From NCBI GenBank assembly GCA_024614665.1, contig GCA_024614665.1_4861.1: DNA of 64,000 bases; one strand, given 5' to 3'. Shown one piece after another: positions 8,775 to 41,058 of the stretch. Within the stretch, counting starts at the first letter, position 1; every line of letters starts with the position of its first letter. The position numbers and the translations under genes were made by a program. The notes beneath the pieces are model-generated. The model ran no database searches. It saw nothing but the letters and a program-made list of their open reading frames with translations, and was not told where the DNA came from. The DNA comes from a phage.

Positions 8775-8844
8775 TTAGACGTTCCTTTTAGAAAATACGT
8801 TACCCACAAATCAGTATAGCAGACACCATATTTGAGAGTAGACC

Positions 8845-10629
8845 ATGGAAATCAATACCTATTACGCACCCGAGGATGTCATCGCTAAAGAGTGCAAGCA
8901 CGTCGCTTATGCGACGGACGAAGAAAAAGAAAATGACTTTGTCCTCATCAAAGAGGTCATCCATACTAAGGATGGCAGGCTTATCCCGCGCTTGGTAATG
9001 CGTGAGAATTTAAAGCGTCCGGTGTACGTTACCCGTGAAGAATATCGTAACCACCAGGAGAAAAAGGAGTTCGAAGAAAAAGGAAAATGTCAAGAACTCT
9101 GGACTACTGATGCGCAGATGGCGAAGACGTTGCAGATGGGTTTAGGTGCACGTTTCCCTGACCCGAAAAAGAACCTGAGGCGTGTTTGTACTAGCCCGTA
9201 CGTTTATTGGGCCGACTTACCGATTACCAGCTGGATTAAACAGAAATACTTAAAGCGTTGGCCAAACAACATCAGTCCTAACCGTCTTTGTGTATACGAC
9301 GTAGAGACCAACGAAATGGACGGCACGAAGGAACCGTGGATCGTGTCATTTATCTTAGACGACGAAATCCATTTCTTTGGTGCTAAGAACTACATGGACC
9401 GCATCGGTAAAAACGCGGAAGAAGTCATTCTCAAAAAAGCGCAGGAACTCTTAAGCAAAATCGAATTCGATGAGAAAGACAAAAAGACTGGCGAAAAGGT
9501 GACAAAGACCAAAGACATTATCAGTGGTTATAAAATCTTCACCTATACCTGCGCTACAGCAGGGCAGTGCATCGTCAGGATGTTCGAAGAAATTCATCCG
9601 CGTCTTCCTGATTTGCTGGTCGCATGGAACCACCAGTTCGATATTTCACGCATGTTAGAAACCTTGCAGAAAGAAGGCATCGATCCACTGGGCGTCTTTA
9701 ACCATCCGGATGTGCCGGAGAAATACCGTCGTCTGTGGTTTAAAGAAGACCAGGCGAACAAAAAGACAGAATCCAAGTCACTCACCAAAGCACCGTCACA
9801 ACAGTGGCACGTACTCTACTGTACTGCGTCTTTCTACTGTGTGGATGCCATGGTGTTATTCCGTTCGTTGCGTGTCCACGAAGGCCAACGTCCTTCGTAC
9901 AAGTTATCTGCCATACTGTACACCGAACTCGGTTTACACAAACTCGACATTCCTGGCCTGCCGTATGAAGATAACCTGCAATGGCACATAAAAGCACAAC
10001 GGGACTACCCTGCCGAATACGCCGTATACAACATGATGGATAACTTGTTAATTGTGTTGTTGGATAAGAAGACGAACGACTTGTCTTCAGCAATATCCAT
10101 TCTGGCAGGTTTCTCGATGTACGATATCTTCCCGTCGCTACCAAAACGTATCTGTGTGGCCTTTACCTATTATCTGTATGACAAAGGATACGTCATCGGC
10201 TCCGTAGGATCTGCAATGCGTAACGATTACGATGAAGAGGTTATCGGTACAGACGGTTGGATTGTTACCCTGACAGCATGTATGAATGCTGAGAACGGTC
10301 TGAATAACATTCTGGAGGAGATTGACGAATATTACTCTGCGTTCCGTGGTCAAACTGCGGATGCGGACTTAACCCAGGCCTACCCTTCGGCCACAAACAT
10401 GATGAACCAGTCTCGTGAGACCACACTCATTGAACTGCTGTCCATCAATGGGGTTAGTGAAGAGATTCGACGTCGCACGGGCGTCAACTTAACTGCTGGG
10501 CGAGTTAATGCCATGGAAATAGCGACAGACTTCTTCTGCTTACCGGACAAAGACACTGTCCTGTCTACGTTCTTACGTAAGCAAGGGGAAGTAGTGACAG
10601 AGCCTATGGAGTACATCTGCGGGTTCTAA
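8845..10629 (+). CDS. DEDDy 3'-5' exonuclease domain protein (family-B DNA polymerase N-terminal-like)
   Basis: Exo I-like YDVETNE, Exo II-like WNHQFD, Exo III-like YNMMD in correct order and spacing. Confidence 0.6.
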   Translation: MEINTYYAPEDVIAKECKHVAYATDEEKENDFVLIKEVIHTKDGRLIPRLVMRENLKRPVYVTREEYRNHQEKKEFEEKGKCQELWTTDAQMAKTLQMGLGARFPDPKKNLRRVCTSPYVYWADLPITSWIKQKYLKRWPNNISPNRLCVYDVETNEMDGTKEPWIVSFILDDEIHFFGAKNYMDRIGKNAEEVILKKAQELLSKIEFDEKDKKTGEKVTKTKDIISGYKIFTYTCATAGQCIVRMFEEIHPRLPDLLVAWNHQFDISRMLETLQKEGIDPLGVFNHPDVPEKYRRLWFKEDQANKKTESKSLTKAPSQQWHVLYCTASFYCVDAMVLFRSLRVHEGQRPSYKLSAILYTELGLHKLDIPGLPYEDNLQWHIKAQRDYPAEYAVYNMMDNLLIVLLDKKTNDLSSAISILAGFSMYDIFPSLPKRICVAFTYYLYDKGYVIGSVGSAMRNDYDEEVIGTDGWIVTLTACMNAENGLNNILEEIDEYYSAFRGQTADADLTQAYPSATNMMNQSRETTLIELLSINGVSEEIRRRTGVNLTAGRVNAMEIATDFFCLPDKDTVLSTFLRKQGEVVTEPMEYICGF

Positions 10630-10637
10630 AACAAAAA

Positions 10638-10680
10638 AAGAAAGGCCTCTCTACCCTAGGGTAGAGAGGTACTTTTATTT
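10638..10680. terminator. bidirectional intrinsic terminator
   Basis: Hairpin CCTCTCTACCC-TAG-GGTAGAGAGG flanked by A-run and T-run. Confidence 0.7.
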
Positions 10681-11180
10681 AGCCGCCAAAGGCGTGCATA
10701 ACCAGCGAACGGAGGTCCGGGTCGTTCAAGCGACGGGCCAGACGGTCAACATCGTTGGTATCACGGAAACGACCTTTATCGGCGCAGCGTGCGTAACGAA
10801 TCAGCATGTTAATAAAGATAACGAAGACTTCACGCTCGTCACGATTCGGGAAGTTCTCACTGATACGGTTATTAGCAGCCGGTGCGTAGAAAATACCGTT
10901 ACGGTGCTTATTAGCCGCTTCTACAAAGGCGTAGAAACCATCCAGGAAGGCCTGACCGCGCAGTTTAAACAGCTCACGGAAAGAGTGATGCAGCTTATTA
11001 TACGCATCTTTCTCAGCCTGGGTACCAGATGCTTTACGTGGGCCGGCGTTGTTACCTGCTTCATCGAGCATCGTGGTGATCAGTTTAACACGATATTGGT
11101 CGTCGTTGCTGTAAGAAGCGCTATCACGGACCACGCCTTCTGTACGCGGGTCAAGGGTAGTAGTGTCTTTCTTAGTCATG
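10679..11180 (-). CDS. hypothetical protein (possible RNAP beta-prime distal fragment)
   Basis: ORF 10679..11254 trimmed to ATG at 11180 just after upstream stop; weak resemblance FRELFKLRG to beta-prime trigger-loop region. Confidence 0.45.
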
Positions 11181-11192
11181 AGGAAACAATCC

Positions 11193-12491
11193 TTAGGTGA
11201 TGTGGAATTTAGGGATGTACTCTTTAACCACGGTTTCACGACCGTGCATCGCACCCATTGCAGTGGTCATAACGTTCGAGAAGCCGGATGAGATATCCGC
11301 AGCGATTGCCCGTGGCTCTTCTGCTTTGTGTGCAGAGGCGCACGCCGCACAACAGTCTACGTGACCTTGCTGACATAAGATGGGTCGGCGGAGTCGAACA
11401 ACTTTACCGAATTGCGTTTTCAAATACTCTTCGGTGAGTTGGGTAACTTTACCGTTAATCATCGCGTTCATGCCAACATAACGCTTGTAGTTATACTGGT
11501 TAATTACAAGTGCATGAGTCAGTTTTGTCCCGCAATCTCCAGGCACGATTTTGTGGTTCTGGAAGATCATCTGGATGATACGTACCTGCTCACCACCCTT
11601 AGCGGTTTCTGCACCACGCATGAAGGAACCTTCACGAGTGTCATTGAACTTCTCTACCAGGTACTTCATCCCGGTCTGATCAACTTCCATCAGACTCGTT
11701 GGGATTAAGGTAAAATCTGCACCTTCTTTAAAAGCGGTCTGAATACCATACATCAGCATCAGCTTACGGCGACGCATACGCGCTTTAGGCGAGCTGTAGA
11801 ACTCAACGGACTGGTCGCCACTCAACCACTCTTTATCAAGTTCGTCGAGAGCTTTTTCAATCATAACGATAACCGCAGGGTTATCCAGTTCGTCTTTGTG
11901 CTTCAACAGCAACGCATCACGTACCTTATACGCGTCAGGATGCGTTGTAAGGCTTCTAATTGTTCCTGTTGGGGCAATCCCACGACACAACGGAGCAAGC
12001 TCGTGTAGACCCCCTACAAAGCGTCCTATCATGTATGGCCGAATCGCGTCTTCGTTGTCTGGATCGGTGTCATCGTATTCCACACATCGTTCGTACATCT
12101 CCTTACGGTAGGCTAGCGGGTCACGGGACTCTGCCAGATACGGGAGACGGGTACCGAATGCGTAATAGATAGCAATCCAGTTAAAGACATAGCGACCCAC
12201 GGTAGTCGGAATGGGACCAGCTAGACCTGGGTACATCTCAGGACGCAATTCAAACTGCTCTTCCGGCACGAACAGCTCTTCATCTTTTTTGCACCCTTCA
12301 ATCGGCACCCATTTAATTTCTTCGTTTTCCCAGTAGTGGGGCAAGCCGTCAATGTAGTTCAGGTCGTATTGCTCAGGTGGCTCACCTTTTTCATTAAAGA
12401 TTGCCACGTTGAAAACCGCAATACGCCACACCAGTCTACGCCAAGCTTCTGCTTTACACGCAGCGACCAGATAATCAATCTTGTTCATCAT
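11193..12491 (-). CDS. RNA polymerase beta-prime-like fragment
   Basis: GDCGT motif preceded by bridge-helix-like segment and followed by CAAC...AIAADISSGF...MTTAMGAMHG resembling the trigger-loop start; ends shortly after. Confidence 0.5.
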   Translation of the reverse strand: MMNKIDYLVAACKAEAWRRLVWRIAVFNVAIFNEKGEPPEQYDLNYIDGLPHYWENEEIKWVPIEGCKKDEELFVPEEQFELRPEMYPGLAGPIPTTVGRYVFNWIAIYYAFGTRLPYLAESRDPLAYRKEMYERCVEYDDTDPDNEDAIRPYMIGRFVGGLHELAPLCRGIAPTGTIRSLTTHPDAYKVRDALLLKHKDELDNPAVIVMIEKALDELDKEWLSGDQSVEFYSSPKARMRRRKLMLMYGIQTAFKEGADFTLIPTSLMEVDQTGMKYLVEKFNDTREGSFMRGAETAKGGEQVRIIQMIFQNHKIVPGDCGTKLTHALVINQYNYKRYVGMNAMINGKVTQLTEEYLKTQFGKVVRLRRPILCQQGHVDCCAACASAHKAEEPRAIAADISSGFSNVMTTAMGAMHGRETVVKEYIPKFHIT

Positions 12492-13359
12492 CTACCTCCG
12501 CGTCCCCACTAGCGTATATGACTTTCAACGCTTCCAATCCTTTCCGCAAGATTTCTCCAGGCGGGACGTTGTCGACGTTCAACAGGGCAAGGTTCTTTTC
12601 TAAGTCACCGTAAGCCCCATCAAACTCCGCATGAGGAATAATCGATAAGCCCACCGCATACATCGTCAGCAAATCAATTTCGCTAACATCTTCTACGCGA
12701 AACTCTAACGACTGCTGCACCACCGTTAAGTCTGGCTCAGCAGGCAGATTCATAAAGACAAACGCTGACGGGTTCTCAGGGAACAACCGCAAGTAAGCGA
12801 CGATACGCTCTTGGCGCTCATCGTCGCTGTTTCGTTTCTGGCTTTCCAACGACTCTGCTGCTAAGAAGTTTTCCATCACGGTAAGCACGCGTGGGCTGAC
12901 AACAGTAATCAGGTCTTCGAAGTGCAGGTTTTCGTCACCGTAAACATAACGACACATGTTCTCCAGGATATACTCTGGTGTCTCACCAGAGGAGACAATC
13001 CCGTAAAGGGCATCACTGTCTTCGAACTCCTCGAAGGCTTCCAACACACCGTGAAGGATACGTACGGTTTCTTTCGGTTTCTGGAAGACGATTTGTGGAT
13101 TAAGTCCGATACCGAGGCGGTTGCCTAATCCAACCGCTACCTTCACGATAATGGATTCCAGACGGACAGTTTCGTCCGCGTGGTCAGACAACGGGTTGCT
13201 ATAAACATCGGATAACGCCACATCGTAACCGTAATCCATACCGAGCGTCACTAAATCTAGCATCGGTGCTGCACGACCTTCGTGACGGTTGACTGTCAAT
13301 ACAGCCGCATAGTCGGTATAAATATCAATCATGGCTCTGTTCCATAGTGAAAAGGGCAT
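12475..13359 (-). CDS. hypothetical protein
   Basis: 294-aa ORF in same operon as beta-prime-like fragment. Confidence 0.65.
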   Translation of the reverse strand: MPFSLWNRAMIDIYTDYAAVLTVNRHEGRAAPMLDLVTLGMDYGYDVALSDVYSNPLSDHADETVRLESIIVKVAVGLGNRLGIGLNPQIVFQKPKETVRILHGVLEAFEEFEDSDALYGIVSSGETPEYILENMCRYVYGDENLHFEDLITVVSPRVLTVMENFLAAESLESQKRNSDDERQERIVAYLRLFPENPSAFVFMNLPAEPDLTVVQQSLEFRVEDVSEIDLLTMYAVGLSIIPHAEFDGAYGDLEKNLALLNVDNVPPGEILRKGLEALKVIYASGDAEVDDEQD

Positions 13360-13374
13360 TCATACCAAGGCGAA

Positions 13375-13410
13375 TAAAAAAAAAGAAAACGGGGCCGAAG
13401 CCCCGAATTT
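13375..13410 (-). terminator. intrinsic terminator
   Basis: Hairpin GGGGC-CGAA-GCCCC with A-run on plus strand (T-run on minus). Confidence 0.6.
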
Positions 13411-13413
13411 CTA

Positions 13414-13785
13414 TTAATGTCCCGTCAGATCTTTCTCCAGCTCTTTTAGCGCACGTTCACCTGCCACCTGTTCGCCGGCTTTGGCGATAATCGCTTTGCG
13501 ACGACGGATATTGTCGAGCATCAGCAGTATCTGCCAGCGGGGGCGGTCGAGGAACTCGTCTATCGACATCCGGTAGTTTTCACCGACCTCTTCACGTAAG
13601 TAAGTGGCGTACCAGATATCGTAAAGACTACCGTATACCGGGTTTTCAAAATCCGACAATCCTACCTGATGGTCGCCGGTATTAAGAGCCAGTGTACGGT
13701 CATACGCTTCCAGAAGCTCGTTATGGGCTTCCTGATACGTAATAGGACGTGTGCTACGCTGCTTGAAGAGAGAGGTGGTATCCAT
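13414..13785 (-). CDS. hypothetical protein
   Basis: 123-aa ORF followed by stem-loop terminator. Confidence 0.6.
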   Translation of the reverse strand: MDTTSLFKQRSTRPITYQEAHNELLEAYDRTLALNTGDHQVGLSDFENPVYGSLYDIWYATYLREEVGENYRMSIDEFLDRPRWQILLMLDNIRRRKAIIAKAGEQVAGERALKELEKDLTGH

Positions 13786-13829
13786 CTTGAGCGTTGTAAT
13801 GATTTGCTCGGACGGAACGTCTTCCTGGT

Positions 13830-15800
13830 CTAGCCAATATCGGCGTATTGATCCAGCAAGAATTTCTGAATCTCGGACACCACTCGAGAGAGCACGAAAA
13901 AAACCCTGTCCGGACTGATGGTAACAATACCACGATACAGACCGTCTTTCTCGCCGTGTGTTTTACCACACGCCGGGCAGCGTTTACCCATGTAACCGAA
14001 TACCGCTAAACGTGTACGTTCGTTGTATTCAGCAATCGCGTTTTCAAACTGACCAACGTAGATACGGTCGGAAGACAGCTCTTCCAACATCTCAACGATT
14101 TTCGCTGTGTCGGTTTCAGTTTGTGGGATAACCTGCATTTCACCGTTTACTTCACGTTGCTCATTAACGGTGATAGATTTCACCATGTGAGCGTAACGCG
14201 TTAAGCGACGGGCTTCTGCAGTTAAACGCATATGGGATTCACGTTCACGCTCGGTAGCAAATTCAGACAGCGCTGCCGTAGTTGACGCGTTAACGTCTTC
14301 AATCCACTTCTCGGTGGAGTCAAAGAAGCTACCCAGGGTAGAACGGCCAAATTCAACACGCACGTCGTGGTATTCAAATACCGAAGATGGGTCAACCTGA
14401 TGCGCCGCGATATATTCGCGCTGTTCTGCAATAGAAATCACTGGACGCTCAGTACCGCGTTGACGTGCCCACAATTGTTTCTGCAGGTCGCTAAACAGAC
14501 CGGAACCGAAACGGATACAGCGTGCGATATTCAGCTTCACATCTTCCTGCTGAGTACAACCGTCCTCACCACACATCAGCGTCCAAGGAATACCAGACGG
14601 CCACTTCGCCTGCAACGGACCCAGAATAACCAACCAGTAGTCAGCCAGATCAATGGTATCCAACAGCACCGTACGCAGATCGTTTCCCGCACAATCGATG
14701 GTTGCTTCGGTAACAAACTGAAGTGCGAATTCAACCATGTGGCGCATGTACACGCCAGACGACGACGACAGCATCAATCCGTAGGTCTGCATACCGATGG
14801 TCGCAGTTTCCAGCGTTAGACGCATGTCGAAGTCACAAAGGTCGCGTTCATGCGGTGCGCGGAAGCCCACGTAGATACCTGTGGCCGGCAACCAAACCAT
14901 GTTCGGAATACCCGATTTACGTACACGACGCAAAGCAGCCAGCGCGCCAGTGTGCATATTGTCACGCGGTGCAATAGCACCAGATGCCTTGCCGTCCGGC
15001 AACATCACGCGCTGTTCCCAAGCGGTATCACCACGGTCCAGTGCACCCGCGAATGCCGGTACGCCGTCCTGTAGACGTGGCGGGGTCATGTTCAAAGCAC
15101 GATAGATGTCGTCGTAAACCTGTTGCTGTTCAGGGCTTTCGAATAGCAGCCGGCCGTCTTTCGGTGAACGTTTAATATTACCGAGGAACTTTTGCAGGGA
15201 GTCTGCAATGATGTTAGGGTCTTGTTTCAGACCAATCAACATCTTCGACTGTGTCAGAATACGATCGGCTTCATCTTCACCCATTTCGGCGGTTTCAGCT
15301 AAATGGGTATTACCGAAGTCAATCTCACGCATCTGTTGTTGTTCCGGAACCTTCGGTGCTGCATCTTCCATTTCTTTTACAGCCGGCTGTGCCGGTGCAA
15401 CCGCTTCTGGAGCTTTTGGCTGCGGAGCAGGTTCTACCGCAGGCGCTTTCTCTACCACCGGTTCCGGGGCACGATGCAAGTGCTCCTGCACCTGTTCAGA
15501 GAAAGTCTGAGCTGCCGGTGATACAGGAGCAGCAGGTTCAGGCAACGCCTCTTCTACAAACGTCGGACGCTCAAGCTTAGGCTCCGGACGATGGTAGTGT
15601 TGGTGATAAACTTCTTCTGCACGGGCAAAAGAAAAATCGGGATTGGCTTGTTTAATAGCCATGATGATTGCATCCGAGGTCGCGTCATCAGGCACGGTCG
15701 GAAGAATCATCTCTTGTTGGGTAGCAGCCGCCACAGGGGCTGGCTGGTCGGGATTAGGGCGACGGGCATTACCCGGACGCTGATCTTGGATCTCAGACAT
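13830..15800 (-). CDS. hypothetical protein with Pro/Ala-rich N-terminal region
   Basis: 656-aa ORF; low-complexity PEPxxAP segment; CPACGK near C-terminus. Confidence 0.7.
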   Translation of the reverse strand: MSEIQDQRPGNARRPNPDQPAPVAAATQQEMILPTVPDDATSDAIIMAIKQANPDFSFARAEEVYHQHYHRPEPKLERPTFVEEALPEPAAPVSPAAQTFSEQVQEHLHRAPEPVVEKAPAVEPAPQPKAPEAVAPAQPAVKEMEDAAPKVPEQQQMREIDFGNTHLAETAEMGEDEADRILTQSKMLIGLKQDPNIIADSLQKFLGNIKRSPKDGRLLFESPEQQQVYDDIYRALNMTPPRLQDGVPAFAGALDRGDTAWEQRVMLPDGKASGAIAPRDNMHTGALAALRRVRKSGIPNMVWLPATGIYVGFRAPHERDLCDFDMRLTLETATIGMQTYGLMLSSSSGVYMRHMVEFALQFVTEATIDCAGNDLRTVLLDTIDLADYWLVILGPLQAKWPSGIPWTLMCGEDGCTQQEDVKLNIARCIRFGSGLFSDLQKQLWARQRGTERPVISIAEQREYIAAHQVDPSSVFEYHDVRVEFGRSTLGSFFDSTEKWIEDVNASTTAALSEFATERERESHMRLTAEARRLTRYAHMVKSITVNEQREVNGEMQVIPQTETDTAKIVEMLEELSSDRIYVGQFENAIAEYNERTRLAVFGYMGKRCPACGKTHGEKDGLYRGIVTISPDRVFFVLSRVVSEIQKFLLDQYADIG

Positions 15801-16413
15801 TGGCCGCTTCCTCGGTTTCTACTACAACGTCGTTGTGATCGACGATGGCGTTTTTAGGGAGTTCTTTCGAATTATTAGCCAGAGCTTCAGCCAACAGAAC
15901 CTCGGCTTGTTCCACGGTATGACCGTTATTCAGCGCCTGCTTCACGAACTTCACTTTCGCGTTATACGTGGAGAAGATTTCGATACTGGTGCCCTGAATA
16001 TCCATCGCAAGCATGTTTGTCTGCTGGTCAATCAGGGACAGTTCGGTGTGGTCGACGTGGAACTGGTCTTTGATTTCTTTCCACGTTTTGCTGTTATCGT
16101 TCAGCATGTCAAACACCGGCACAGCCTTAGCATCTGCCTCAACAATCAGTTTACCGAACAGCTCTTTGCCTTGCTGACACATGCCAAGGAAAGCCGCCTG
16201 TGCTTCATCCAGCGCTTTCAACGTAAAGGCTTTCAGCTCTTCGTGCGTAATGGCTTCAGTTACTTCACGCTCCCGATCAATTTTGCCTGACAGGAATTCG
16301 GTACTTTCGATAAACACAGCTTGTTTTTTCAACACAGACTGCATCATAGCCTTGACGAAATCGCGGGCGTCTTTACGTGGGTTATAAGCGGGTTTCTTTT
16401 TGCGACGACTCAT
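15793..16413 (-). CDS. hypothetical protein with basic N-terminus
   Basis: ORF trimmed to ATG (MSRRKKK) preceded by AAAGGA SD. Confidence 0.6.
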   Translation of the reverse strand: MSRRKKKPAYNPRKDARDFVKAMMQSVLKKQAVFIESTEFLSGKIDREREVTEAITHEELKAFTLKALDEAQAAFLGMCQQGKELFGKLIVEADAKAVPVFDMLNDNSKTWKEIKDQFHVDHTELSLIDQQTNMLAMDIQGTSIEIFSTYNAKVKFVKQALNNGHTVEQAEVLLAEALANNSKELPKNAIVDHNDVVVETEEAANV

Positions 16414-16437
16414 CGTAATAATCCTTTTGAAATTAGG

Positions 16438-16466
16438 GGTTGGGTGTATACACAATATACACCCAA
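16438..16466. promoter_or_regulatory. perfect palindrome GGGTGTATACACAATATACACCC (candidate operator or stem-loop)
   Basis: Inverted repeat between genes 16474..16857 and 15793..16413. Confidence 0.35.
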
Positions 16467-16473
16467 AACGTGA

Positions 16474-16857
16474 TTAACTTGCATCGTGTGGAACAGTCAC
16501 CCAATCGTGCCATTTTTCAGAGTAAAGACGATAAGCCATCTTTGGATTCTGATCGACACTACCGGCCGGGTTCTCATTCCACAACACGTACGTATATAAC
16601 TCGTACGACGAAGTGTTACGGATACTTGACGTGCGGGTGACGTAGTACGTCAACCCGCGTTGGTTAAGGAACAGGCCGCTGTAATGTTCAGTGACCATGT
16701 AGTAGTGAAACGCCTGGTTGATAGTGGCGTCGGTACAGAGTTTCTTAGCGACGTCTTCTACGCCGGGATACGCCTTTAGAATGTTTTCGAGAAAACTTGC
16801 TAAAGTCATTCCGATGTAGGGTGGCAGCGGCTCTGCTGGACGCGGCGGAGTGAGCAT
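16474..16857 (-). CDS. hypothetical protein
   Basis: 127-aa ORF with AAGGA SD before ATG at 16857; overlaps 3' end of helicase ORF. Confidence 0.5.
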   Translation of the reverse strand: MLTPPRPAEPLPPYIGMTLASFLENILKAYPGVEDVAKKLCTDATINQAFHYYMVTEHYSGLFLNQRGLTYYVTRTSSIRNTSSYELYTYVLWNENPAGSVDQNPKMAYRLYSEKWHDWVTVPHDAS

Positions 16858-18451: not shown

Positions 18452-18464
18452 GCTGCCCCTCTTC

Positions 18465-18494
18465 GCACAAAAAAAGAGGGGCGCAAGGCCCCTC
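18465..18494 (-). terminator. intrinsic terminator after beta-prime-like gene
   Basis: Hairpin GAGGGGC-GCAAG-GCCCCTC followed on minus strand by T-run. Confidence 0.65.
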
Positions 18495-18497
18495 GGT

Positions 18498-32305: not shown

Positions 32306-32320
32306 ACAGCCCCCAGTGAA

Positions 32321-32352
32321 GAAAAAAAGAGGGGCCGAAGCCCCGTCTTTTT
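32321..32352 (-). terminator. intrinsic terminator
   Basis: Hairpin GGGGC-CGAA-GCCCC with A/T-run flanks. Confidence 0.65.
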
Positions 32353-32932
32353 AACACGTCGCGCCAAGTTCCGAACAGGGATCACCATCTTCCCAGTCGA
32401 AAGCTGACATGCGTGCCCAGTTAAGTTGAATATCCACTTTATCGATTCGACTCAGTCGTACTGCACGATCTTCATTGGTAGCCCATTGCCAAATCTTATC
32501 TTCATCGTACTTCGTCGAAATGCCCGATGTTGCTTCGCGGAAGTGGTCATCGGTACGCATATACGCATTCCCTTTGAACACATCCAACCGCGAAAAGCCG
32601 TTCTCATAACCAGTCGCCATACCGTCATTATACAACTTACGATATTCCGGCATGGCAACGAGGAATGGCTGTAAAGCAGCATTGGCGAACTGGAATTCAC
32701 CCAACTCTTCGATCTGTCTTACCATCTCCACCGCATCGCTATAACGTAATTTACGTGCGGTACTGAATGTTTCACGGAAACGCTCCAGTGAGATTAAGTC
32801 CTGACAATGTTCTTTTACACGGTCAACGAGATCGGGTGCCAGGCTAGACAGCGAAAACGATTCTTTGAATACGCTGAGTGCCCCGCTACCTTCGGTCTGT
32901 TTCGTCCACACCGTGCTACCTTGTAGCCACAT
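32351..32932 (-). CDS. hypothetical protein
   Basis: 193-aa ORF followed by CGAA-tetraloop terminator. Confidence 0.7.
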   Translation of the reverse strand: MWLQGSTVWTKQTEGSGALSVFKESFSLSSLAPDLVDRVKEHCQDLISLERFRETFSTARKLRYSDAVEMVRQIEELGEFQFANAALQPFLVAMPEYRKLYNDGMATGYENGFSRLDVFKGNAYMRTDDHFREATSGISTKYDEDKIWQWATNEDRAVRLSRIDKVDIQLNWARMSAFDWEDGDPCSELGATC

Positions 32933-32945
32933 TACAATACTCCTA

Positions 32946-33185
32946 TTAGCCCATCACCGCTTCCAACGGAATGCCTTCTTCATCGTCCTCATCTGCCTCA
33001 ATAAGGAACTGGTTCTGCATACTGATTAGCTCGTTATGTAAAACCATGCCGTGTTCTACGCGGTCCACATCAGTAGAAGACATAAAGCCGTTATCTGGAC
33101 GGAATTGGAGCGCCAACTTCATCTCAGTTTCATCGACTGGCAAACGTACCTGGAACTGGTCACCATCGAAATCCTGTTTGTCCAC
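32946..33185 (-). CDS. RNA polymerase beta-prime N-terminal-like subunit, putative exon 2 (DFDGD catalytic loop)
   Basis: Encodes VDKQDFDGDQFQV resembling NADFDGDQMAV; no SD before the GTG; in-frame stop upstream at 33216-33218; exon boundary inferred. Confidence 0.55.
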   Translation of the reverse strand: MDKQDFDGDQFQVRLPVDETEMKLALQFRPDNGFMSSTDVDRVEHGMVLHNELISMQNQFLIEADEDDEEGIPLEAVMG

Positions 33186-33394
33186 CGTACACCGTTTCCG
33201 TATACAGCAGGTGTGCTAAGACACCCTCCTTATCTCTCGACAAGGCACAGACTATATCTTCACCATAGCTTACGCCTTAGGTGTTCTCCCACTTCGAAGT
33301 CCACTAGGACCCCTACTCGCATTTCAGCGATAGTCGTTGAACATTCCTCTCACGAGGCTTCGCTGCTGATTACCCATTATCACAACCCTTAGCA
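33186..33394 (-). other. putative intron in beta-prime-like gene (boundaries uncertain, may span about 33200-33600)
   Basis: ORF-free gap between beta-prime N-terminal homology and the DFDGD segment; no ORF inside. Confidence 0.45.
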
Positions 33395-34897
33395 CTATTG
33401 TTTAGCATAGGTCATCGTATCTGTTGTTTCAGACTTTCGTCCCCATTTCTGGTAGATACGCTTTAGGGTTTCCCAGCAATTCAGGAGAATACACATCGGA
33501 GGTTTCCCGTCCGATGGGGCTCTTTTCGAACCGTTAGCCATCTTTATCACACGGTCAGAGATACGCAGCGAACACTGGTTAACATCGGTAACAACTTCGT
33601 CGATGAACAGCGTCTGAATAGACAACTGTACCAGCGTTGGGTTACGTAGCGGTATAACCATGATCCCAAGACCGCCTGGGGATTCACGAATCAGTTCTTT
33701 AAAGATTTCGTCTACAAGCGGGTCATACTGCATTGCCGCTTTTGCGACGATACGTTCACACTGCCGCGACGAATAACCCCGGCGTAGCAGTTTGTTCTCG
33801 ATGTGGGTCGACATCAACCCAACCATCCAACGCCATGGTGCTTTTAACTTCCAGGCATCGTGTGGTTCTGAGATAGGTGAGATGGTTGCACGACCACCGA
33901 ACGGAATATGGGTGGAACCCAATTTCGCACGATAGTCACCCGGTTTACCTTCCATAGACTCACGACGGAAGTCCATGTGGAAGTACGTTAACTGACGGTT
34001 CGCTTTCAAAGCGCGACTAATCAGAAAACGCGGTTCGATCGCTTTACGCCGCGTATAAAGTAACGCGATATTTTTCACCGCATCAATAGCACCCGTGAAC
34101 ACTGGGTCTACCATGACACCACGACGACCTTCCTCAGTAACGATAAGTTTAGAGGAGATTAGCGGTAAGTGTCTTGGGAAGAATGCATGGCGTTGCGTTT
34201 CGAATAGCTCCTTCCATTGTAAACGTAAGCGTTCGCCTTCAGCGGCGTTATGCCGATTAGGTGCGAAGATTTCCTTCCAGGCTTCTGGCGTGGTAAGGAT
34301 GTTAAAGATACTAACGTGGTTATCAACCAGATTGCGCAAGCCACGAACGAAACCATGTTCTTCCAATACACGTTTCACAGCATGTGCGCGTTTACCGTCT
34401 GGTTCTTCTATAAGGTAATACGGGTCAATCATCCACATCATCAAGTCATTACCGCGTTCGATAGTGACCTTGTTACGTTCAAACTTCTTCAACTTGCTAT
34501 TAAAGAAAGCATTGAACATTGCCCAGAATCGTGGGTTGACGAAGTTACCCATTTCATCAGGTGCACGTAACCATACATCGGATTCAATTCGATGTTCAGT
34601 TACAACATAGCCACACGTCGGACACTTACAACCGAGATTGTAACGATGCGCGATCGGTGCCGGACAATCCAAACTACAAATCGGTGCAGAGTTCAGTTCT
34701 TCGTCAACGATTCTGTTCTGTACCATGCGATCGATAAGTTCAGCAACCTCGATCGCATCCCCGTTAACAGCGACATCGTTAATAATAGTGGGTGGTTTAA
34801 TACCTTTGGCAGCAGCTTCTATTTGCAAATCGGACAAATAGTTATCCTGACTAACCAACCGGCCGGATATTCCGTAGAATTTTGGTACCTTTCTCAC
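33395..34897 (-). CDS. RNA polymerase beta-prime N-terminal-like subunit, putative exon 1
   Basis: Zn-finger-like CSLDCP...CKCPTC; LRNPTLVQLSIQTLF resembling RpoC NRQPTLHRMSIMAF; catalytic DFDGD absent from this ORF. Confidence 0.65.
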   Translation of the reverse strand: MRKVPKFYGISGRLVSQDNYLSDLQIEAAAKGIKPPTIINDVAVNGDAIEVAELIDRMVQNRIVDEELNSAPICSLDCPAPIAHRYNLGCKCPTCGYVVTEHRIESDVWLRAPDEMGNFVNPRFWAMFNAFFNSKLKKFERNKVTIERGNDLMMWMIDPYYLIEEPDGKRAHAVKRVLEEHGFVRGLRNLVDNHVSIFNILTTPEAWKEIFAPNRHNAAEGERLRLQWKELFETQRHAFFPRHLPLISSKLIVTEEGRRGVMVDPVFTGAIDAVKNIALLYTRRKAIEPRFLISRALKANRQLTYFHMDFRRESMEGKPGDYRAKLGSTHIPFGGRATISPISEPHDAWKLKAPWRWMVGLMSTHIENKLLRRGYSSRQCERIVAKAAMQYDPLVDEIFKELIRESPGGLGIMVIPLRNPTLVQLSIQTLFIDEVVTDVNQCSLRISDRVIKMANGSKRAPSDGKPPMCILLNCWETLKRIYQKWGRKSETTDTMTYAKQ

Positions 34898-34911
34898 TCT
34901 GTCAACCTCAA

Positions 34912-34950
34912 CAAAAAAAGAGGGAAGGACGGAGGCGTTAGCCCCCGTCC
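34912..34950 (-). terminator. intrinsic terminator after the 617-aa protein gene
   Basis: Hairpin GGACGG-loop-CCGTCC followed on minus strand by T-run. Confidence 0.6.
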
Positions 34951-34979
34951 GTTTCCTAACTACTCAGTAACCGATTCGA

Positions 34980-36833
34980 TTACAGTTTGAAGTTGCTCAG
35001 AGACACGCCCAGACCGAAATCGGAACCGCTTGCAGACAGGCCGTTGCCAGACAGCGTGAAGTCTTCCCCACCGTTGTTGAAGAACAGAGAGGTCGCCATC
35101 GTGTTGTAGGCATTTACACCAGTCATAGACCAGGTGCAGTTGTTACGGACGAAGTCCAGCAGGCATTTACCGAAGATCGGGTTGATAGCCATATCCAGAG
35201 ATTCACCGGTAGCTTGCGGTGCTTTGGATGCGAACAGAGAAGCGGCCAGTTTCAGCATGTAGATACGCTGCTGACGCTCGTTCAGTTCACGGTGGCTGTA
35301 GGACTGTGCGTTCAGGTAGCTATAGACGTCGTTCGCGTTATCACCCAGTTTGGTAACAACGGAAATCAGGTCCATATCCTGGAAGCTGCGTTTCTGTGCA
35401 GTACCGGTGTAAACACCGGAAACAGTCGGTACGGCTGCTTTCACGATGTGGCTGCAATGGATGGTACCATTGAAGGCATCGCCCAGCTGTGCTTTCAGTG
35501 CAGAAGCAAATACTGCAGTGAAGCTGGTCGCTGCAACAACTTCGCCGTTCTGATCACGCGGGGACATGGAATTCAGAATAGCGAGCAGCTGTTTCAGAGA
35601 GTTGTCGTAACCGACCGCAATTTCAGACAGCATAGTAGACAGACCACCCAGGCCGTTACCGGCACGATGGCTAACTACCAGTGCTGCTTCACGCGGTGCG
35701 AACATATCCAGGCAACCTTCGATAGCTTCACGGCTACCGTCGATTTTGGATACATCAGGACGAGCGTCAGCACCCCAGGACAGGTATTCTGCCACACGGG
35801 AGAACTTGCGATCTTGTTTGTTCAGGCGTTTCACAAACAGGTCACGCCAGCCACCGATTGCCGCGATTTCTGCAAATGCAGCCAGCAGCAGCAGTTGACG
35901 TTCATACGGTGCCATTGCACCTTCAGTTTGAGAATCGACCAGACTTACTACGATTTCAGCCTGCAGCTGTTTCAGGTCGTAGACGCCGTTAACGACAGGT
36001 TTCTGACCGGTGAAACGCATATTGACGAAACCGGTACCGGATACACGCGGATACACCTGTACCTGATTGGTGTCCAGCAGAGTCGGAGTGGCATCGGTTA
36101 CGTTGCTTGGGCTGTGCTCAACGGTGATTGCGAAATCAGCACGCTGTGCGTGGCCGTTAGCATCCACAACCGCGCCATCTTCCAGCGGCATTACTGAGGC
36201 CTGATAACGGTCATGCTTACGCAGGTTCAGTGTACCCAGGTAGCCTGCGATACGACCGAAGATACCCATCATCATCTGACCCATCAGGGTACGTGCCCAC
36301 TCAGCATCCAGAACTTTACCCAGGTCTGGTACGGAGTTGATGATCATGAAGTTCGCATTGGTCAGACCATGCGCTTCCATGATGTTTTTCTGTACTACTG
36401 CCAGCACGTCTTTGTTGAACAGTTCAGTGATGGTGTAGTAGTCTTCCTGGCCGTTGTTGGTAGTTTCTTTCAGACGCAGAGACTGACCGCGTTCAAAGAA
36501 GATGATACCGTACAGCCAGTGGCCCTGCCATTGGCCTGCGACGTACGCCGCGGAACCCATTTCGTTACCCACGCCGACGATGGTGCCCCAGCGGAATGCG
36601 TTGAGGTATTCGTTGCTTTTCTTCAGCTCATCCAGGAGGTTGGTGAAGTGCATTGCATAAGTGCTGATGTTGCGGATGCCAAATGCGTTATCGAATTGGC
36701 TGACAGTAGAAGTACCCGGCACAGCAGTTTGCACTTTTACAGTCTCGTTGCCCAGACCGCCCAGTGGTGCGGTGTCTTGAGTCTGAGTGTTGTTCTGCTG
36801 AGCGTTGTTGTTAGAGTCAACGATTTTTACCAT
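34980..36833 (-). CDS. abundant 617-aa protein (major capsid protein or nuclear-shell protein candidate)
   Basis: Strong highly-expressed-type codon bias, AAGGAA SD, motif upstream, terminator downstream. Confidence 0.75.
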   Translation of the reverse strand: MVKIVDSNNNAQQNNTQTQDTAPLGGLGNETVKVQTAVPGTSTVSQFDNAFGIRNISTYAMHFTNLLDELKKSNEYLNAFRWGTIVGVGNEMGSAAYVAGQWQGHWLYGIIFFERGQSLRLKETTNNGQEDYYTITELFNKDVLAVVQKNIMEAHGLTNANFMIINSVPDLGKVLDAEWARTLMGQMMMGIFGRIAGYLGTLNLRKHDRYQASVMPLEDGAVVDANGHAQRADFAITVEHSPSNVTDATPTLLDTNQVQVYPRVSGTGFVNMRFTGQKPVVNGVYDLKQLQAEIVVSLVDSQTEGAMAPYERQLLLLAAFAEIAAIGGWRDLFVKRLNKQDRKFSRVAEYLSWGADARPDVSKIDGSREAIEGCLDMFAPREAALVVSHRAGNGLGGLSTMLSEIAVGYDNSLKQLLAILNSMSPRDQNGEVVAATSFTAVFASALKAQLGDAFNGTIHCSHIVKAAVPTVSGVYTGTAQKRSFQDMDLISVVTKLGDNANDVYSYLNAQSYSHRELNERQQRIYMLKLAASLFASKAPQATGESLDMAINPIFGKCLLDFVRNNCTWSMTGVNAYNTMATSLFFNNGGEDFTLSGNGLSASGSDFGLGVSLSNFKL

Positions 36834-36870
36834 TTTAAATATTCCTTAATAGTGATTGCAATCATAGTTC

Positions 36871-36885
36871 GGTTCGCAGAGATAA
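36871..36885. promoter_or_regulatory. palindromic motif AGATAATATCTGCCT
   Basis: 38 bp upstream of start of the abundant 617-aa protein gene. Confidence 0.5.
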
Positions 36886-36972
36886 TATCTGCCTGTAATT
36901 TCATGGAATGCAAGTATGCCGTCGCTTACTTACAAGGCACATAGTCCAGACATTTCTCAGGAACTGTCACAT

Positions 36973-36987
36973 AGATAATATCAATCT
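36973..36987. promoter_or_regulatory. palindromic motif AGATAATATCAATCT
   Basis: 53 bp upstream of plus-strand start 37040. Confidence 0.5.
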
Positions 36988-37039
36988 GAGATATTTTTGA
37001 CTGTGACTGACTTCCTATGTGGAATCTAAGGAGTCTGCC

Positions 37040-38107
37040 ATGTTCAGCCAAGCCGAGTTAAACCAAGTGGCCATAAAGGGTCACAGCACGGACCCCTCCG
37101 CTATAACATTAGCGGCTCACGTAAAAAACAACAGCCAGCGTATACGCAACTACTTCGAACAGCTTAATCGCAGTGCTGGTAATGGCCATTTGTTGCAACA
37201 GGTGTTGTCTGCCATCGGCTATGCCGGTGAACCAGAGTACGAAGACATCGAATGGGCTTGCCGTCGCAAGCTTGTTCAGATCGGTAACGCCTTACGCTTG
37301 ACGTCTGTTGGTGAGTACGGTCAAATCTTTAATAGCAAGTTTATCCAGGGCCAAGATGAGGTAATCTCTCTCGTAGCCCGCCCAGTAAATCCAGACCTTT
37401 CGTTCCGCGACTACACCCCCGCCCGTTACCTCTACCATGAGTATACCAACCTCAATTGGAAGTTCGGTGACGGACGGCCCCGAGGTGTTACGGTGATCGA
37501 AATCAACCTGGTTGCTTTGCTTTGGCAATATGTCAAAGGCCAGCAGCACTACAGTCGCGGTACCGAACCTATTGCCACACCTGTGTATCTCCAACGACAT
37601 GTGATCTCTCGCATGTTGCCGAGCTACATGGATATCGCCTTTGTAAATATACATCGTGCGATAGCCTTCGGGAAAGAGATTGAACCGGATGAAACATTAC
37701 GTGTCATTCCTGTTCCGCCGCTTCAAGCTTTAGCTGTGAAGCACGCAAAAGGCATCCGTAGTAAACTACTGGCTGCCAACCCGTTACCGGGACAAGTCTT
37801 AAACAACATCCCATTGTTCTTCCAACACCCTGATGAAGAAGGCCACACTGCACTGGAACTGATTGTCTTTCGAGAACCAGGTCAAACACTGCAGAACACC
37901 TGGCACCAGAACATGGTGAACTGGTACTGGGCACTGTTTTGTCTTCAATACAACCAGGGGAATATGGAGAAACACAAACGTACGATGTTGGTTGATTTGG
38001 CGCGTTATGTGGACTCTAAAGTCCTCACACGTTTGACCAAATCCTTCTATAACTTCATCCAACGCGATTTGATTATCCCGTTGATGACAGAGCTAGAAGA
38101 AAAATAA
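37040..38107 (+). CDS. hypothetical protein
   Basis: Start set at ATG 37040 with AAGGAG SD; motif upstream; terminator downstream. Confidence 0.7.
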   Translation: MFSQAELNQVAIKGHSTDPSAITLAAHVKNNSQRIRNYFEQLNRSAGNGHLLQQVLSAIGYAGEPEYEDIEWACRRKLVQIGNALRLTSVGEYGQIFNSKFIQGQDEVISLVARPVNPDLSFRDYTPARYLYHEYTNLNWKFGDGRPRGVTVIEINLVALLWQYVKGQQHYSRGTEPIATPVYLQRHVISRMLPSYMDIAFVNIHRAIAFGKEIEPDETLRVIPVPPLQALAVKHAKGIRSKLLAANPLPGQVLNNIPLFFQHPDEEGHTALELIVFREPGQTLQNTWHQNMVNWYWALFCLQYNQGNMEKHKRTMLVDLARYVDSKVLTRLTKSFYNFIQRDLIIPLMTELEEK

Positions 38108-38160
38108 GACTTACTCTCTCCTCGCGAACACTCTTTCGAGTATTCATACTATATACAAAA

Positions 38161-38198
38161 ACTACACACTTCGGTGTGTAGTTCTTTTTTTTATTTTT
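38161..38198 (+). terminator. intrinsic terminator
   Basis: Hairpin ACTACACAC-TTCG-GTGTGTAGT followed by T-run. Confidence 0.7.
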
Positions 38199-38208
38199 TG
38201 TCTGTCTA

Positions 38209-38406
38209 TTATTTTATCGTCTCCGTAAAATCACTTGCGTATGGTTTACCCCACACAGTGATTTTACGTTTCCGTTTGGCATCCAATGCCGTGATATGCA
38301 CCGTTTCGCCTGCCTGATGTAACTCAATATCCACGCAACCCCGTTCTTCGAGGTCGCGACGGATTGCGGTTATCATCTCTGTGGACTTCCCGCTATTTCG
38401 ATACAT
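38209..38406 (-). CDS. hypothetical small protein
   Basis: 65-aa ORF. Confidence 0.35.
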   Translation of the reverse strand: MYRNSGKSTEMITAIRRDLEERGCVDIELHQAGETVHITALDAKRKRKITVWGKPYASDFTETIK

Positions 38407-38674
38407 ACCCTTCCACCCGCACGTTTAAACCACCTATTGCTGCAAACCAACCGTCGAGAGGATTGTCAAATTGCTTGTCAATAGACACAACCGGTTTCAT
38501 GGTTTTCCAACGATCATCGCGTGGCGACACCGAACCTTCACACGATGCCAGTGTTTGAAACTGCGTTGGCAAAGACAACACATGCTGCCGTACCAGGTTA
38601 GGCTGGCTGTGCAAATAGAGCTGTCGCCAGCCCCAGTTATTTGCTTTACTGTTTCGTTTCGACACAATGTTCAT
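38393..38674 (-). CDS. hypothetical small protein
   Basis: 93-aa ORF. Confidence 0.35.
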   Translation of the reverse strand: MNIVSKRNSKANNWGWRQLYLHSQPNLVRQHVLSLPTQFQTLASCEGSVSPRDDRWKTMKPVVSIDKQFDNPLDGWFAAIGGLNVRVEGYVSK

Positions 38675-38778
38675 CCTTTAGATAAGATAACCAAAGATTG
38701 AGTAGCGCCGTCGGTACCGGTGCTGGGTCCACCCACGTAACGGTTATTGTTTGTGGTACACACGATCGTGACTTATTC

Positions 38779-41058
38779 TTACTCCTCCGCTTCTTCCCCA
38801 TCTTCTTCCTCTCCATCACGTTCAGATTTCTTAACGTACTCACCACTACCTAATTCTTCCTTGACGGAATCTACAGACTCACCGTAGTAATCCGAAAGCA
38901 GACGAGTTCTGTTCTTGTCCATCATGAACACACCCAGACATTCCAGAATGTGATAGTAAGGTTCTACTGTGGAGAATGCGCTTCGACGTGTGTCTGCAGC
39001 ATCAATCAGCTCCGGCGGAATACCGAAGTTTTCCACCAGGAACTCTGGCAGTATCAGAGTGCGATAGGTACGATAGTTGTTTTCTTCGAACCACCGTGTT
39101 GCGGTGGTCTTAATCATCGGGTCTTTAATGTTTTCCAGCCACTCTTTAACGGCTGTTTTGTTCTCCAGGTTTACCGGAAGTTTCACGGCGTCATAAGGCG
39201 GTTCGTCCAGGTAGCCGTACTTCGGTCCAAAGATAGCGTTGTACATGCGGTGGTAATGGTAACTCTTTTCATCATCTTCAGAGTACGCACTACGGTCTTT
39301 GACGTTGGTTGTTTTCAGGTAGCCTGCTTTACCAGCGCGAATAGAATCCACCACAACGTGCTCAATTGCAGCAACCTTTTCCAGCAGAGGCAGAATCTTA
39401 ATCTTGTCACCACGTGCCACGATCTCACAGAGTTCTTTAATCGTGCGTTTGAACTCTTTCATGACCACCGGAGGAATGTTCGACGTACGTAAAGACACGC
39501 CCTTAACTTCTAACTCAGGGTCAGACTTCAACTGCCCTTCCTGGCCAGTGATGATGGAGAAATAGTGTTTTGCTTTCGTGGTTAACGCAAAGGAGTCGAA
39601 CTTAAATTCGTTCTTCATTGCGTACAAAAACAGACGCTCTTTCGCCACACCGATATTCGCCGACATACTCGCCATCAGATGACGTAAGTGCTGGGTTGCG
39701 ATATAAATCATCGCATCCGATACGCGCGTAGCTTCACGACCGTAATGTTGACCGGTATACCACTGCGCCCACCACTGTGCAGTCATCATCGTGGAGTCGG
39801 TATCAGATACCACGCCAACACGACGAACCACGTCAGGCATCCTGGCAATGTTGATTGGCAGGTTTTTGGTGGTCAGGATATTACGAATCAAGCACGCGTA
39901 CTTACCGATGGTTTTCTGCAGATACACAGCTGAGCGAATCAGCTCTTTGTATTTTTCCTGCTTATCCCACGGTTCCGCTTTGTTCGTGTTTTCGTCTTTG
40001 AGTTTAACGTCAGAGAACGACTTACCTAATGGCACGATATCAGTACGGAACTGCGAGATAATGATCTGCATGTCACCGTCGATAGAGCGCTCAGCAGCAT
40101 CCCAATCAGTGATCTCGTCTTCCATCTCCTCGGCAATCAGCGCACCGATAAATCCACGCATGAATTCATCGTTATATTTCGCCAGGTGGTAGAAGTCACC
40201 CATGTAGACAAACGCTGCACGTACCAGCGGGCTACAATTACCGACGTAGTGACGAATGAACTCCACCCCTTCCTCGTTACGGAAGTAAAACTCTGCAGAG
40301 TACATAACCACTTCCATAACCTCGTCCACAGTTGGGTAGTGGAGGTTATAGAGTTCCATACACTTCTTGAACTCCGCAAAGTTAGTCAGTGTACCGATAG
40401 AGAGTAGGTGGTCGATGACACGAGACGGCGTGTCGTAGTGACGATTACCGCCCAGTAGTCGTTCGTTGCCCGCATTACCGAATGATGTAGCTGTACGGCA
40501 GGTTGACGTCAATACAGAGTGTGAAGACTGGTTAAAGATTACCGTGTACGGTGATGAGAATGCACCCGACATCCCGTTGTTCAACGTCTTAACAGCGTTC
40601 TGTTCGTTCTTTTTGTTAATACGTAAAACTTCGTTTCCTGCAGCACCGGCTGCATACATCTCTTTCTTAACCACCGCACGCTTACGCACGTTCTCTGCCG
40701 TAAATTCAGCAAGCTTAGAACGCTTGACGTGTTCCGGCAAATAGAAAGTCAACGACGGTGCAGAAATGATCTGCTTATCAATCACTGTACGGAACAGTTT
40801 ATCTACCGTGGTGTATTTTTCTTCGCGATCGCCGGTCTTTTGATTGCGCACCCACATCTTACACACGGGGAATTCGTGTACTAACTCACCACCAGGTTGG
40901 AACATTTCTTCGACCTGCTGTCGACAGAACTCCAAAGAATATTTCCCGTTGGTGACGGTATGAATGTAGAGCGCCAGTTGTTCGTAGTACGCATCGATAA
41001 CGTCAATGTCGCGATGATACTCGTCTTGACTAAGACGAAATGGTGAATTGTAGTCCAC
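38779..41058 (-). CDS. polymerase-like protein (possible family-B DNA polymerase catalytic part)
   Basis: VVSDTDS (motif C-like), KTLNNGMSGAF (motif B-like), KAKHY (KxY-like); acidic C-terminal tail. Confidence 0.5.
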   Translation of the reverse strand: MDYNSPFRLSQDEYHRDIDVIDAYYEQLALYIHTVTNGKYSLEFCRQQVEEMFQPGGELVHEFPVCKMWVRNQKTGDREEKYTTVDKLFRTVIDKQIISAPSLTFYLPEHVKRSKLAEFTAENVRKRAVVKKEMYAAGAAGNEVLRINKKNEQNAVKTLNNGMSGAFSSPYTVIFNQSSHSVLTSTCRTATSFGNAGNERLLGGNRHYDTPSRVIDHLLSIGTLTNFAEFKKCMELYNLHYPTVDEVMEVVMYSAEFYFRNEEGVEFIRHYVGNCSPLVRAAFVYMGDFYHLAKYNDEFMRGFIGALIAEEMEDEITDWDAAERSIDGDMQIIISQFRTDIVPLGKSFSDVKLKDENTNKAEPWDKQEKYKELIRSAVYLQKTIGKYACLIRNILTTKNLPINIARMPDVVRRVGVVSDTDSTMMTAQWWAQWYTGQHYGREATRVSDAMIYIATQHLRHLMASMSANIGVAKERLFLYAMKNEFKFDSFALTTKAKHYFSIITGQEGQLKSDPELEVKGVSLRTSNIPPVVMKEFKRTIKELCEIVARGDKIKILPLLEKVAAIEHVVVDSIRAGKAGYLKTTNVKDRSAYSEDDEKSYHYHRMYNAIFGPKYGYLDEPPYDAVKLPVNLENKTAVKEWLENIKDPMIKTTATRWFEENNYRTYRTLILPEFLVENFGIPPELIDAADTRRSAFSTVEPYYHILECLGVFMMDKNRTRLLSDYYGESVDSVKEELGSGEYVKKSERDGEEEDGEEAEE

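Follow-up and report, generated by a model that had tools for sequence, protein, structure and literature searches.

A stretch of phage DNA 64,000 nucleotides (nt) long (contig GCA_024614665.1_4861.1 of the NCBI GenBank assembly GCA_024614665.1; hereafter the window, at its full length) raises the question of whether one family-B DNA polymerase (PolB) is encoded there by two widely separated genes and, if so, at which point of the enzyme the two polypeptides are divided. An earlier note, made from the sequence alone, had placed a DEDDy exonuclease in one open reading frame and polymerase-like motifs in another, 28 kb away on the opposite strand, and had proposed that the two were the proofreading and the catalytic halves of a single polymerase. 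Both reading frames are present, at that distance and in that orientation:

8845..10629, plus strand: P1, orthologue of gp44 of Salmonella phage SPN3US (YP_009153338); 594 amino acids, ATG start
38779..41058, minus strand: P2, orthologue of SPN3US gp18 (YP_009153312); 759 amino acids, GTG start

We consider it probable that P1 and P2 are the two chains of a replicative PolB with a composite active site, to which each chain contributes catalytic residues. The proposal of one polymerase in two chains was therefore retained, whereas its division into a proofreading and a catalytic half was not, since P1 also carries motif A of the polymerase domain.

Identity of the two genes and previous work

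The window shares ~99% DNA identity with SPN3US, a phiKZ-related jumbo phage of the genus Seoulvirus with a genome of 240 kb, and the P1 and P2 proteins are ~99-100% identical to gp44 and gp18, both of which carry the RefSeq label "DNA polymerase". Literature searches yielded no biochemical work on this enzyme. P2 matched Pfam PF20286 (divDNApol, "Divergent Family B DNA polymerase") over positions 3-705 of the 705 in the model (E=4.6e-284, 944.5 bits, against a gathering cut-off of 25.7 bits), which places it in a polymerase family rather than a non-polymerase one. Its residues 94-189 also gave a weak match to positions 98-190 of PF00136 (E=0.0014), and it matched the PHROG family phrog_2927; no NCBIfam model was found for it. 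P1 matched phrog_3011 'DNA polymerase' (E=4e-251, positions 1-574 of 576), and neither a Pfam nor an NCBIfam family was found for this protein.

The two-chain PolB of SPN3US-like phages is an already-known enzyme, and the idea of a split polymerase is not new, because it has been published for exactly these proteins: both PMC5694885 and PMC5105663 speak of SPN3US gp18 and gp44 as 'a split subunit DNA polymerase'. The divergent PolB of phiKZ-like phages was first detected by Kazlauskas & Venclovas (PMC3201878), who concluded that the exonuclease and polymerase activities are located on two separate polypeptides. Iyer et al. (PMC7824862), with YP_009153312 as the exemplar, pointed out the long helical insert, the adjoining SH3-fold gene and the separately encoded exonuclease. 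P1 and P2 belong to this phiKZ-related split PolB (EL gp021 + gp051; OBP; SPN3US gp18 + gp44; the PolBr-PhiKZ cluster of Kazlauskas & Venclovas), with which they share the unlinked genes, the SH3DP neighbour, the helical insert and the C-terminal TRLxSDYY. The object is identical, and only the domain map proposed here differs, with motif A and the first palm segment assigned to the exonuclease chain.

The exonuclease chain and motif A

P1 was aligned with 32 relatives, with identity down to ~30%. As the earlier note had it, the three DEDDy motifs occur in order, and their five catalytic residues are invariant in all 33 members; a further conserved block follows them. Residues are compared below with those of RB69 gp43:

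9292..9312, plus strand: ExoI, VYD152VE154TN; D152 and E154 correspond to RB69 D114 and E116; invariant
9625..9648, plus strand: ExoII, WNHQFD266IS; D266 corresponds to RB69 D222, N262..D266 forming the pattern NxxxFD; invariant
10018..10044, plus strand: ExoIII, Y392AVY395NMMD399N; Y395 and D399 correspond to RB69 Y323 and D327; invariant
10348..10434, plus strand: motif A block, GQTAD506AD508LTQAY513P514SATNMMN521QSRET526TLIE530; 7 of 29 columns invariant; RB69 404-431
10435..10626, plus strand: C-terminal tail, residues 531-594, beyond the end of the hhalign alignment at 528; low-confidence helices in the model

Apart from the DEDDy residues, D506, D508, Y513, P514, N521, T526 and E530 were invariant among the P1 relatives, and the spacing of this C-terminal block is that of PolB motif A (DxxSLYPS). 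In both the HMMER and the hhalign alignments, D508 was paired with RB69 D411, a metal ligand, and Y513 with RB69 Y416, the steric gate. When the P1 alignment was compared with full-length RB69 gp43 in hhalign, P1 144-528 corresponded to RB69 106-431 in one continuous alignment (probability 97.7%, E=1.4e-12). A search of PDB sequences with the P1 profile also led to RB69 gp43 (E=1e-6). This match fell into three collinear parts, and in the last of them the P1 consensus rtqvaDlDvtsaYPtaeailNlskeTt was paired with RB69 404-430. Profile searches were needed because searches of the PDB sequences with P1 or P2 as single sequences returned nothing useful. Given the E-values of the matches to PF20286, phrog_3011 and RB69 gp43, the motif content of P1 and P2 is far from what chance would produce. 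In terms of domains, P1 consists of the N-terminal domain of PolB, the 3'-5' exonuclease domain, a first palm segment that includes motif A and, at the junction, a tail; the last 64 residues have no counterpart in RB69.

The AlphaFold model of P1 had a mean predicted local distance difference test score (pLDDT) of 82.7 and was very confident for residues 1-460. For the chain folded alone, pLDDT fell below 50 at 465-492, 498-532 and 548-554, regions that include motif A. A motif A segment predicted as disordered in isolation could be a functionless, frozen relic of an ancestral full-length polymerase, with P1 acting only as an exonuclease, or in some other pathway, independently of P2. However, this segment is the most conserved part of P1: invariant columns make up 10% of residues 465-554 versus 4.8% of the exonuclease domain, and they reach 24% in the motif A core (26% around motif B and 22% around motif C of P2). 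Such invariance is not expected of a relic across lineages that are less than 30% identical. The strict co-occurrence of the P1 and P2 genes and the unique upstream element that they have in common (both described below) also speak against a relic, which we regard as improbable. A segment that is conserved and yet unfolded alone is what would be expected if it folds against a partner.

The polymerase chain

The P2 family was aligned over 31 members. The VVSDTDS string, the motif-B-like segment and the KAKHY string on which the earlier note had relied were all recovered, and all of them are invariant in this alignment:

40843..41058, minus strand: N-terminal head, residues 1-72; no RB69 counterpart, the alignments beginning downstream of it
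40564..40602, minus strand: motif B in the second fingers helix, Q153NAVK157TLN160N161GMS164G165; invariant; placed by the PF00136 and Pol zeta alignments
39859..40521, minus strand: multi-helical, clade-specific insert between motifs B and C, residues ~180-400
39787..39822, minus strand: motif C, RVGVVS418D419T420D421S422T423M; invariant; D421 corresponds to D398 of phage EL
39562..39582, minus strand: KxY motif, TTK495AK497HY499; K497 and Y499 correspond to RB69 K706 and Y708
38782..38907, minus strand: TRLLSDYY, residues 718-725, followed by a variable acidic tail; a C-terminal motif of the type described as clamp-binding-like in PMC3201878

The invariant blocks of P2 consisted of Q153, K157, N160, N161, S164 and G165 in motif B, which has a Ser in place of the canonical Tyr (KxxxNSxYG), S418-D-T-D-S-T423 in motif C, K497 and Y499 of KxY, and E517, K519 and G520. 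Another invariant acid, D288, was found within a YxGD sequence of the helical insert. Nothing resembling motif A was found upstream of motif B in the 31-member alignment.

The N-terminal boundary of the homology of P2 to other PolBs rests on three weak, concordant matches, namely P2 73-150 to RB69 427-505 (hhalign, E 0.16), the P2 profile at 82-164 to Pol zeta 1017-1098 (E 0.017), and the PF00136 match given above. Further downstream, P2 497-545 was aligned to RB69 706-754 with E 0.0018. The model of P2 (pLDDT 83.5, predicted template modelling score (pTM) 0.79) has fingers helices at 115-139 and 143-166 and an insert at ~180-400 that is all helical, and its fold matches RB69, Pol alpha and Pol delta over the fingers, palm and thumb only. 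Both the profile and the model thus bear out the observation that P2 is without an exonuclease domain. At motif C, P2 modelled alone formed no beta-hairpin, and confidence was reduced there.

Two relatives of P2 have additional domains. In P0261, a metagenomic protein of 967 amino acids, an N-terminal 5'-3' exonuclease / T4 RNase H-like domain (PF02739 + PF09293) is fused to PF20286, an architecture of flap nuclease and polymerase that resembles the combination in Pol I. The other, P0352, has a C-terminal DUF4326.

Position of the cut and assembly of the active site

Taken together, P1 and P2 contain ExoI-III, motif A, motif B, motif C, KxY and the thumb, and the N-terminal, exonuclease, palm, fingers and thumb domains that make up the overall PolB fold. 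Their matches are collinear and tile RB69 gp43 in full, with P1 giving way to P2 near RB69 residue 430, where the helix next to motif A has just ended and the fingers have yet to begin. Since motif A is on P1 and none is present on P2, the cut falls inside the catalytic domain; judged from the sequences, the split appears not to separate an exonuclease from a polymerase but to pass through the catalytic core.

Motif A on the exonuclease chain departs from the maps of PMC3201878 and PMC7824862, although Cornelissen et al. 2012 may have it already. In PMC3201878, D229 and D398 of phage EL were marked as both active-site aspartates of the polymerase chain, and in PMC7824862 the polymerase was described as lacking only a fused exonuclease. 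In our alignments, EL D398 (gp021) is the second Asp of DTD and corresponds to P2 D421. EL D229 (in QFADRDL) aligns to P2 N226, in a column that varies between Asp and Asn; this column comes after motif B and is part of the helical insert. The strongly diverged gp051 of EL keeps every residue that is invariant in P1, including the motif A block "SSDIDVEGAYPHATLALNVGNRTT", so the corrected map also holds in the phage for which the original assignment was made. As EL D229 is not conserved and motif A is on P1, the active site is probably assembled from both chains. Sequence conservation and alignment give good support to the composite active site that we infer, in which the exonuclease chain contributes motif A, and the models are consistent with it.

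In the proposed enzyme, P1 (gp44) would bring in the N-terminal domain and the DEDDy exonuclease for proofreading, together with the first palm segment and its metal-binding Asp508 and sugar-selecting Tyr513. P2 (gp18) would supply the fingers with motif B, the helical insert, the second palm segment with Asp419/Asp421 and KxY, and the thumb. Neither chain alone would have a complete polymerase active site, so that the two would have to dock, with the motif A strand of P1 completing the palm sheet beside the motif C hairpin of P2. The P1 tail (531-594) and the P2 head (1-72) are candidate elements that probably mediate this docking.

Several points weigh against such an enzyme. The physical heterodimerisation of P1 and P2 is something that we infer, and, apart from the KxY block, the matches of P2 to RB69 are each weak (E 0.16). 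The low pLDDT of the motif A segment in the P1 model would also fit a flexible, non-functional tail, although its conservation argues otherwise. Moreover, P2 has been treated as a complete polymerase in two published analyses (PMC3201878 and PMC7824862), and D288 of P2 could conceivably reach the active site.

The last two points would suit a self-sufficient P2, with P1 as a separate proofreading subunit that associates with it, as epsilon does with alpha in E. coli Pol III. The assignment of EL D229 and D398 to one and the same chain in PMC3201878, the confident stand-alone model of P2 and the extra invariant Asp would all be in keeping with this arrangement. However, an aspartate at the D229 column, besides being replaced by Asn in part of the family, would follow motif B and thus break the universal A-B-C order. 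The canonical motif A (D-x4-Y-P-S...N.S.ET), moreover, is invariant in P1, where it falls on RB69 D411-T429, and the similarity of P2 to PolBs begins only past motif A. The missing beta-hairpin and the reduced confidence at motif C of P2 modelled alone also argue against self-sufficiency. In Pol III the complete active site is on the polymerase chain and the exonuclease chain has no polymerase motif, whereas here the exonuclease chain has motif A. We therefore consider a self-sufficient P2 unlikely, and favour the active site shared between P1 and P2.

The two halves could also be rejoined, either as proteins, with a split intein mediating trans-splicing, or already as RNA. Split PolB genes with split inteins have precedents (PMC4104785), such as the PolB of Nanoarchaeum equitans, whose halves are rejoined in this way according to PMC3061061 and PMC4104785, and both P1 and P2 have junction-specific extensions of ~65-70 residues. 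In contrast to N. equitans PolB, no intein features were found in P1 or P2. The P1 tail ends in ...EYICGF and varies in length and sequence, and the P2 head starts with MDYNSPF. The family alignments of P1 and P2 contained no intein block residues, no conserved Cys/Ser/Thr at the junction and no terminal HN, Pfam detected no intein or Hint domain in either protein, and the extensions are too short for an N-intein of ~100 residues plus extein. Rejoining of the chains is thus very improbable, and two chains that remain separate and dock through these extensions are preferred.

Distribution of the split and search for another polymerase

The tblastn matches comprised 302 phage records for P2 and 295 for P1, the counts of the two being identical in each of the genera Pseudomonas (81), Erwinia (62), Vibrio (23), Serratia (21), Aeromonas (20), Klebsiella (16) and Ralstonia (13). 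In every genome with both positions listed, the distance between the two genes amounted to tens of kb (28 kb in the window, in Asesino and in CR5, ~34 kb in EL and ~93 kb in Goslar). No P1-P2 fusion was found among 94 P1 matches, the 120 listed P2 matches and the best 150 of 1461 cluster representatives at 50% identity. One long outlier of the P2 family was considered as such a fusion and rejected, as its fused part is a 5'-3' exonuclease. The split looks ancestral to the whole clade.

The P1 orthologue of phiKZ-type Pseudomonas phages was matched by tblastn in two pieces over ~1.88-1.96 kb, a pattern suggesting that the P1 gene of this lineage contains an insertion or an intron or has undergone a change of frame. 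GenBank names of both chains are inconsistent and include 'hypothetical protein', 'T4-like DNA polymerase', 'DNA polymerase II' and 'putative DNA-directed RNA polymerase beta subunit'. P1 orthologues are often left as "hypothetical protein", and in Aeromonas phage LAh10 the P2 orthologue is labelled 'putative tubulin like protein'.

A full-length polymerase elsewhere in the genome would have spoken against a split enzyme. None was seen in the SPN3US annotation, and a search of all six reading frames of the complete 240 kb genome with hidden Markov models (HMMs) of both families and with RB69 gp43 gave one copy of each family and nothing else. Only one further coding sequence of SPN3US is named "polymerase"; considered as a hidden DNA polymerase, it was rejected, being homologous to the non-virion RNA polymerase subunit gp123 of phiKZ (PDB 7OGP chain E, E=3e-20). 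Also rejected was a 'YDTDSIV' string at 70.8 kb of SPN3US, which belongs to an antisense frame of the capsid gene and gave no polymerase HMM match. At SPN3US 70084-72438, the antisense of the major capsid gene (70105..72405, plus strand) is stop-free for 785 codons in phase with the sense codons. This open frame likely arises from the absence of in-frame TTA, CTA and TCA codons, an extreme codon bias, and is likely not a real overlapping gene.

Upstream element and neighbouring genes

The regions upstream of P1 and P2 contain the following features:

8797..8820, plus strand: upstream element ACGTTACCCACAAATCAGTATAGC, ending 24 nt before the P1 start codon
41083..41105, minus strand: upstream element ACGTATCCCGCAAGTCTTATAGC, ending 24 nt before the P2 start codon
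41114..41144, minus strand: strong intrinsic-terminator-like hairpin, with a stem of 9 bp, a TTCG loop and a T-run, in the interval from the SH3DP gene to P2
41149..41559, minus strand: SH3DP gene, Pfam PF20287 'SH3 fold domain associated with phage DNA polymerases', E=3.2e-35

The pattern common to the two copies of the upstream element, ACGTnnCCCnCAAnTC(n1-2)TATAGC, spans 23-24 nt; the window has exactly two occurrences of it, and so has the SPN3US genome as a whole. Since the pattern was derived from these two copies, the genome count is no independent test of it, but the identical spacing and the uniqueness are still notable. In the SPN3US genome, the TATAGC core was found at a distance of 24 nt at no other true gene start, and TATAGC was rejected as a general upstream element of this genome. 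In Erwinia phage Asesino, most of the element is kept in front of both genes, and in CR5 it has shrunk to a TAGT(A/T)TAG core. Sigma-70-type promoters were found upstream of neither P1 nor P2. A possible role of the element is that of a promoter or operator dedicated to these two genes, through which the two chains would be co-regulated.

The SH3DP gene lies directly upstream of P2, an adjacency that is kept in phage EL (gp020/gp021), and its product is a possible third subunit of the polymerase. The hairpin and T-run between the two genes suggest that P2 is probably transcribed from its own start and not together with the SH3DP gene. The divergent neighbour of P1 (7422-8774, minus strand) is named 'putative virion structural protein 1' in SPN3US. 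Its product gave a sub-threshold match to Peptidase_M48 (E=0.0034, 17.7 bits, cut-off 20.3) around the HExxH-like 'AAIILHEVGH'.

Comparison with other divided polymerases

Other divided PolBs are compared here as they are described in PMC3061061 and PMC4104785. The gp43A/gp43B of some T4-related phages is, like P1 and P2, a phage replicative PolB encoded by two genes, cut in the polymerase domain and with its catalytic motifs spread over two chains. Its cut runs through the fingers, and its genes are separated by 2 bp to 3 kb (Petrov et al. 2006, 2010; PMC3061061). In the enzyme described here, by contrast, P2 has the two fingers helices, each chain has a junction extension, and the distance between the genes is 28 kb or more. 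The split PolB of Methanothermobacter thermautotrophicus (Kelman et al. 1999), which has been isolated and characterised, is encoded by unlinked genes 85 kb apart (PMC3061061, PMC4104785). Its cut is located ~83 residues C-terminal to the fingers position 467/468 of the Pfu polymerase, in the second palm segment (PMC3061061), and the split is thought to stem from faulty intein excision (PMC4104785). This enzyme resembles P1 and P2 in its two chains, its unlinked genes and its cut in the palm, and differs from them in being archaeal and in being cut in the second palm segment. For the PolB of Rhodothermus phage RM378, the predicted split point lies between the N-terminal domain and the palm (PMC3061061, PMC4104785). 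This PolB represents the true 'exonuclease / polymerase' arrangement, the one envisaged in the earlier note, and P1 and P2 are not divided in this way.

Pfu polymerase engineered with split fingers was active (PMC3061061, PMC4104785), and together with the natural splits this indicates that a break inside the catalytic domain is viable. The predicted cut of P1 and P2, between the helix after motif A and the fingers, differs from those of all the precedents compared. If true, it would be a fourth natural cut position among the PolBs that tolerate a break in the catalytic domain, and would be relevant to polymerase engineering and to the origins of split polymerases.

If the active site is indeed composite, gp18 (PF20286) would be inactive unless co-expressed with gp44, and a mutation in gp44 would hit synthesis as well as proofreading; the P1 chain merits annotation as a polymerase catalytic subunit. 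A broader generalisation, which we put forward tentatively and with somewhat more doubt than confidence, is that all phiKZ-like (nucleus-forming) jumbo phages have an obligate two-chain polymerase, with the catalytic centre completed in trans and a docking module at the junction, and that SPN3US-like phages have in addition a dedicated element that co-regulates the two genes. If completion in trans is true, the domain maps of PMC3201878 and PMC7824862 would be wrong, and P2 expressed alone would be catalytically dead.

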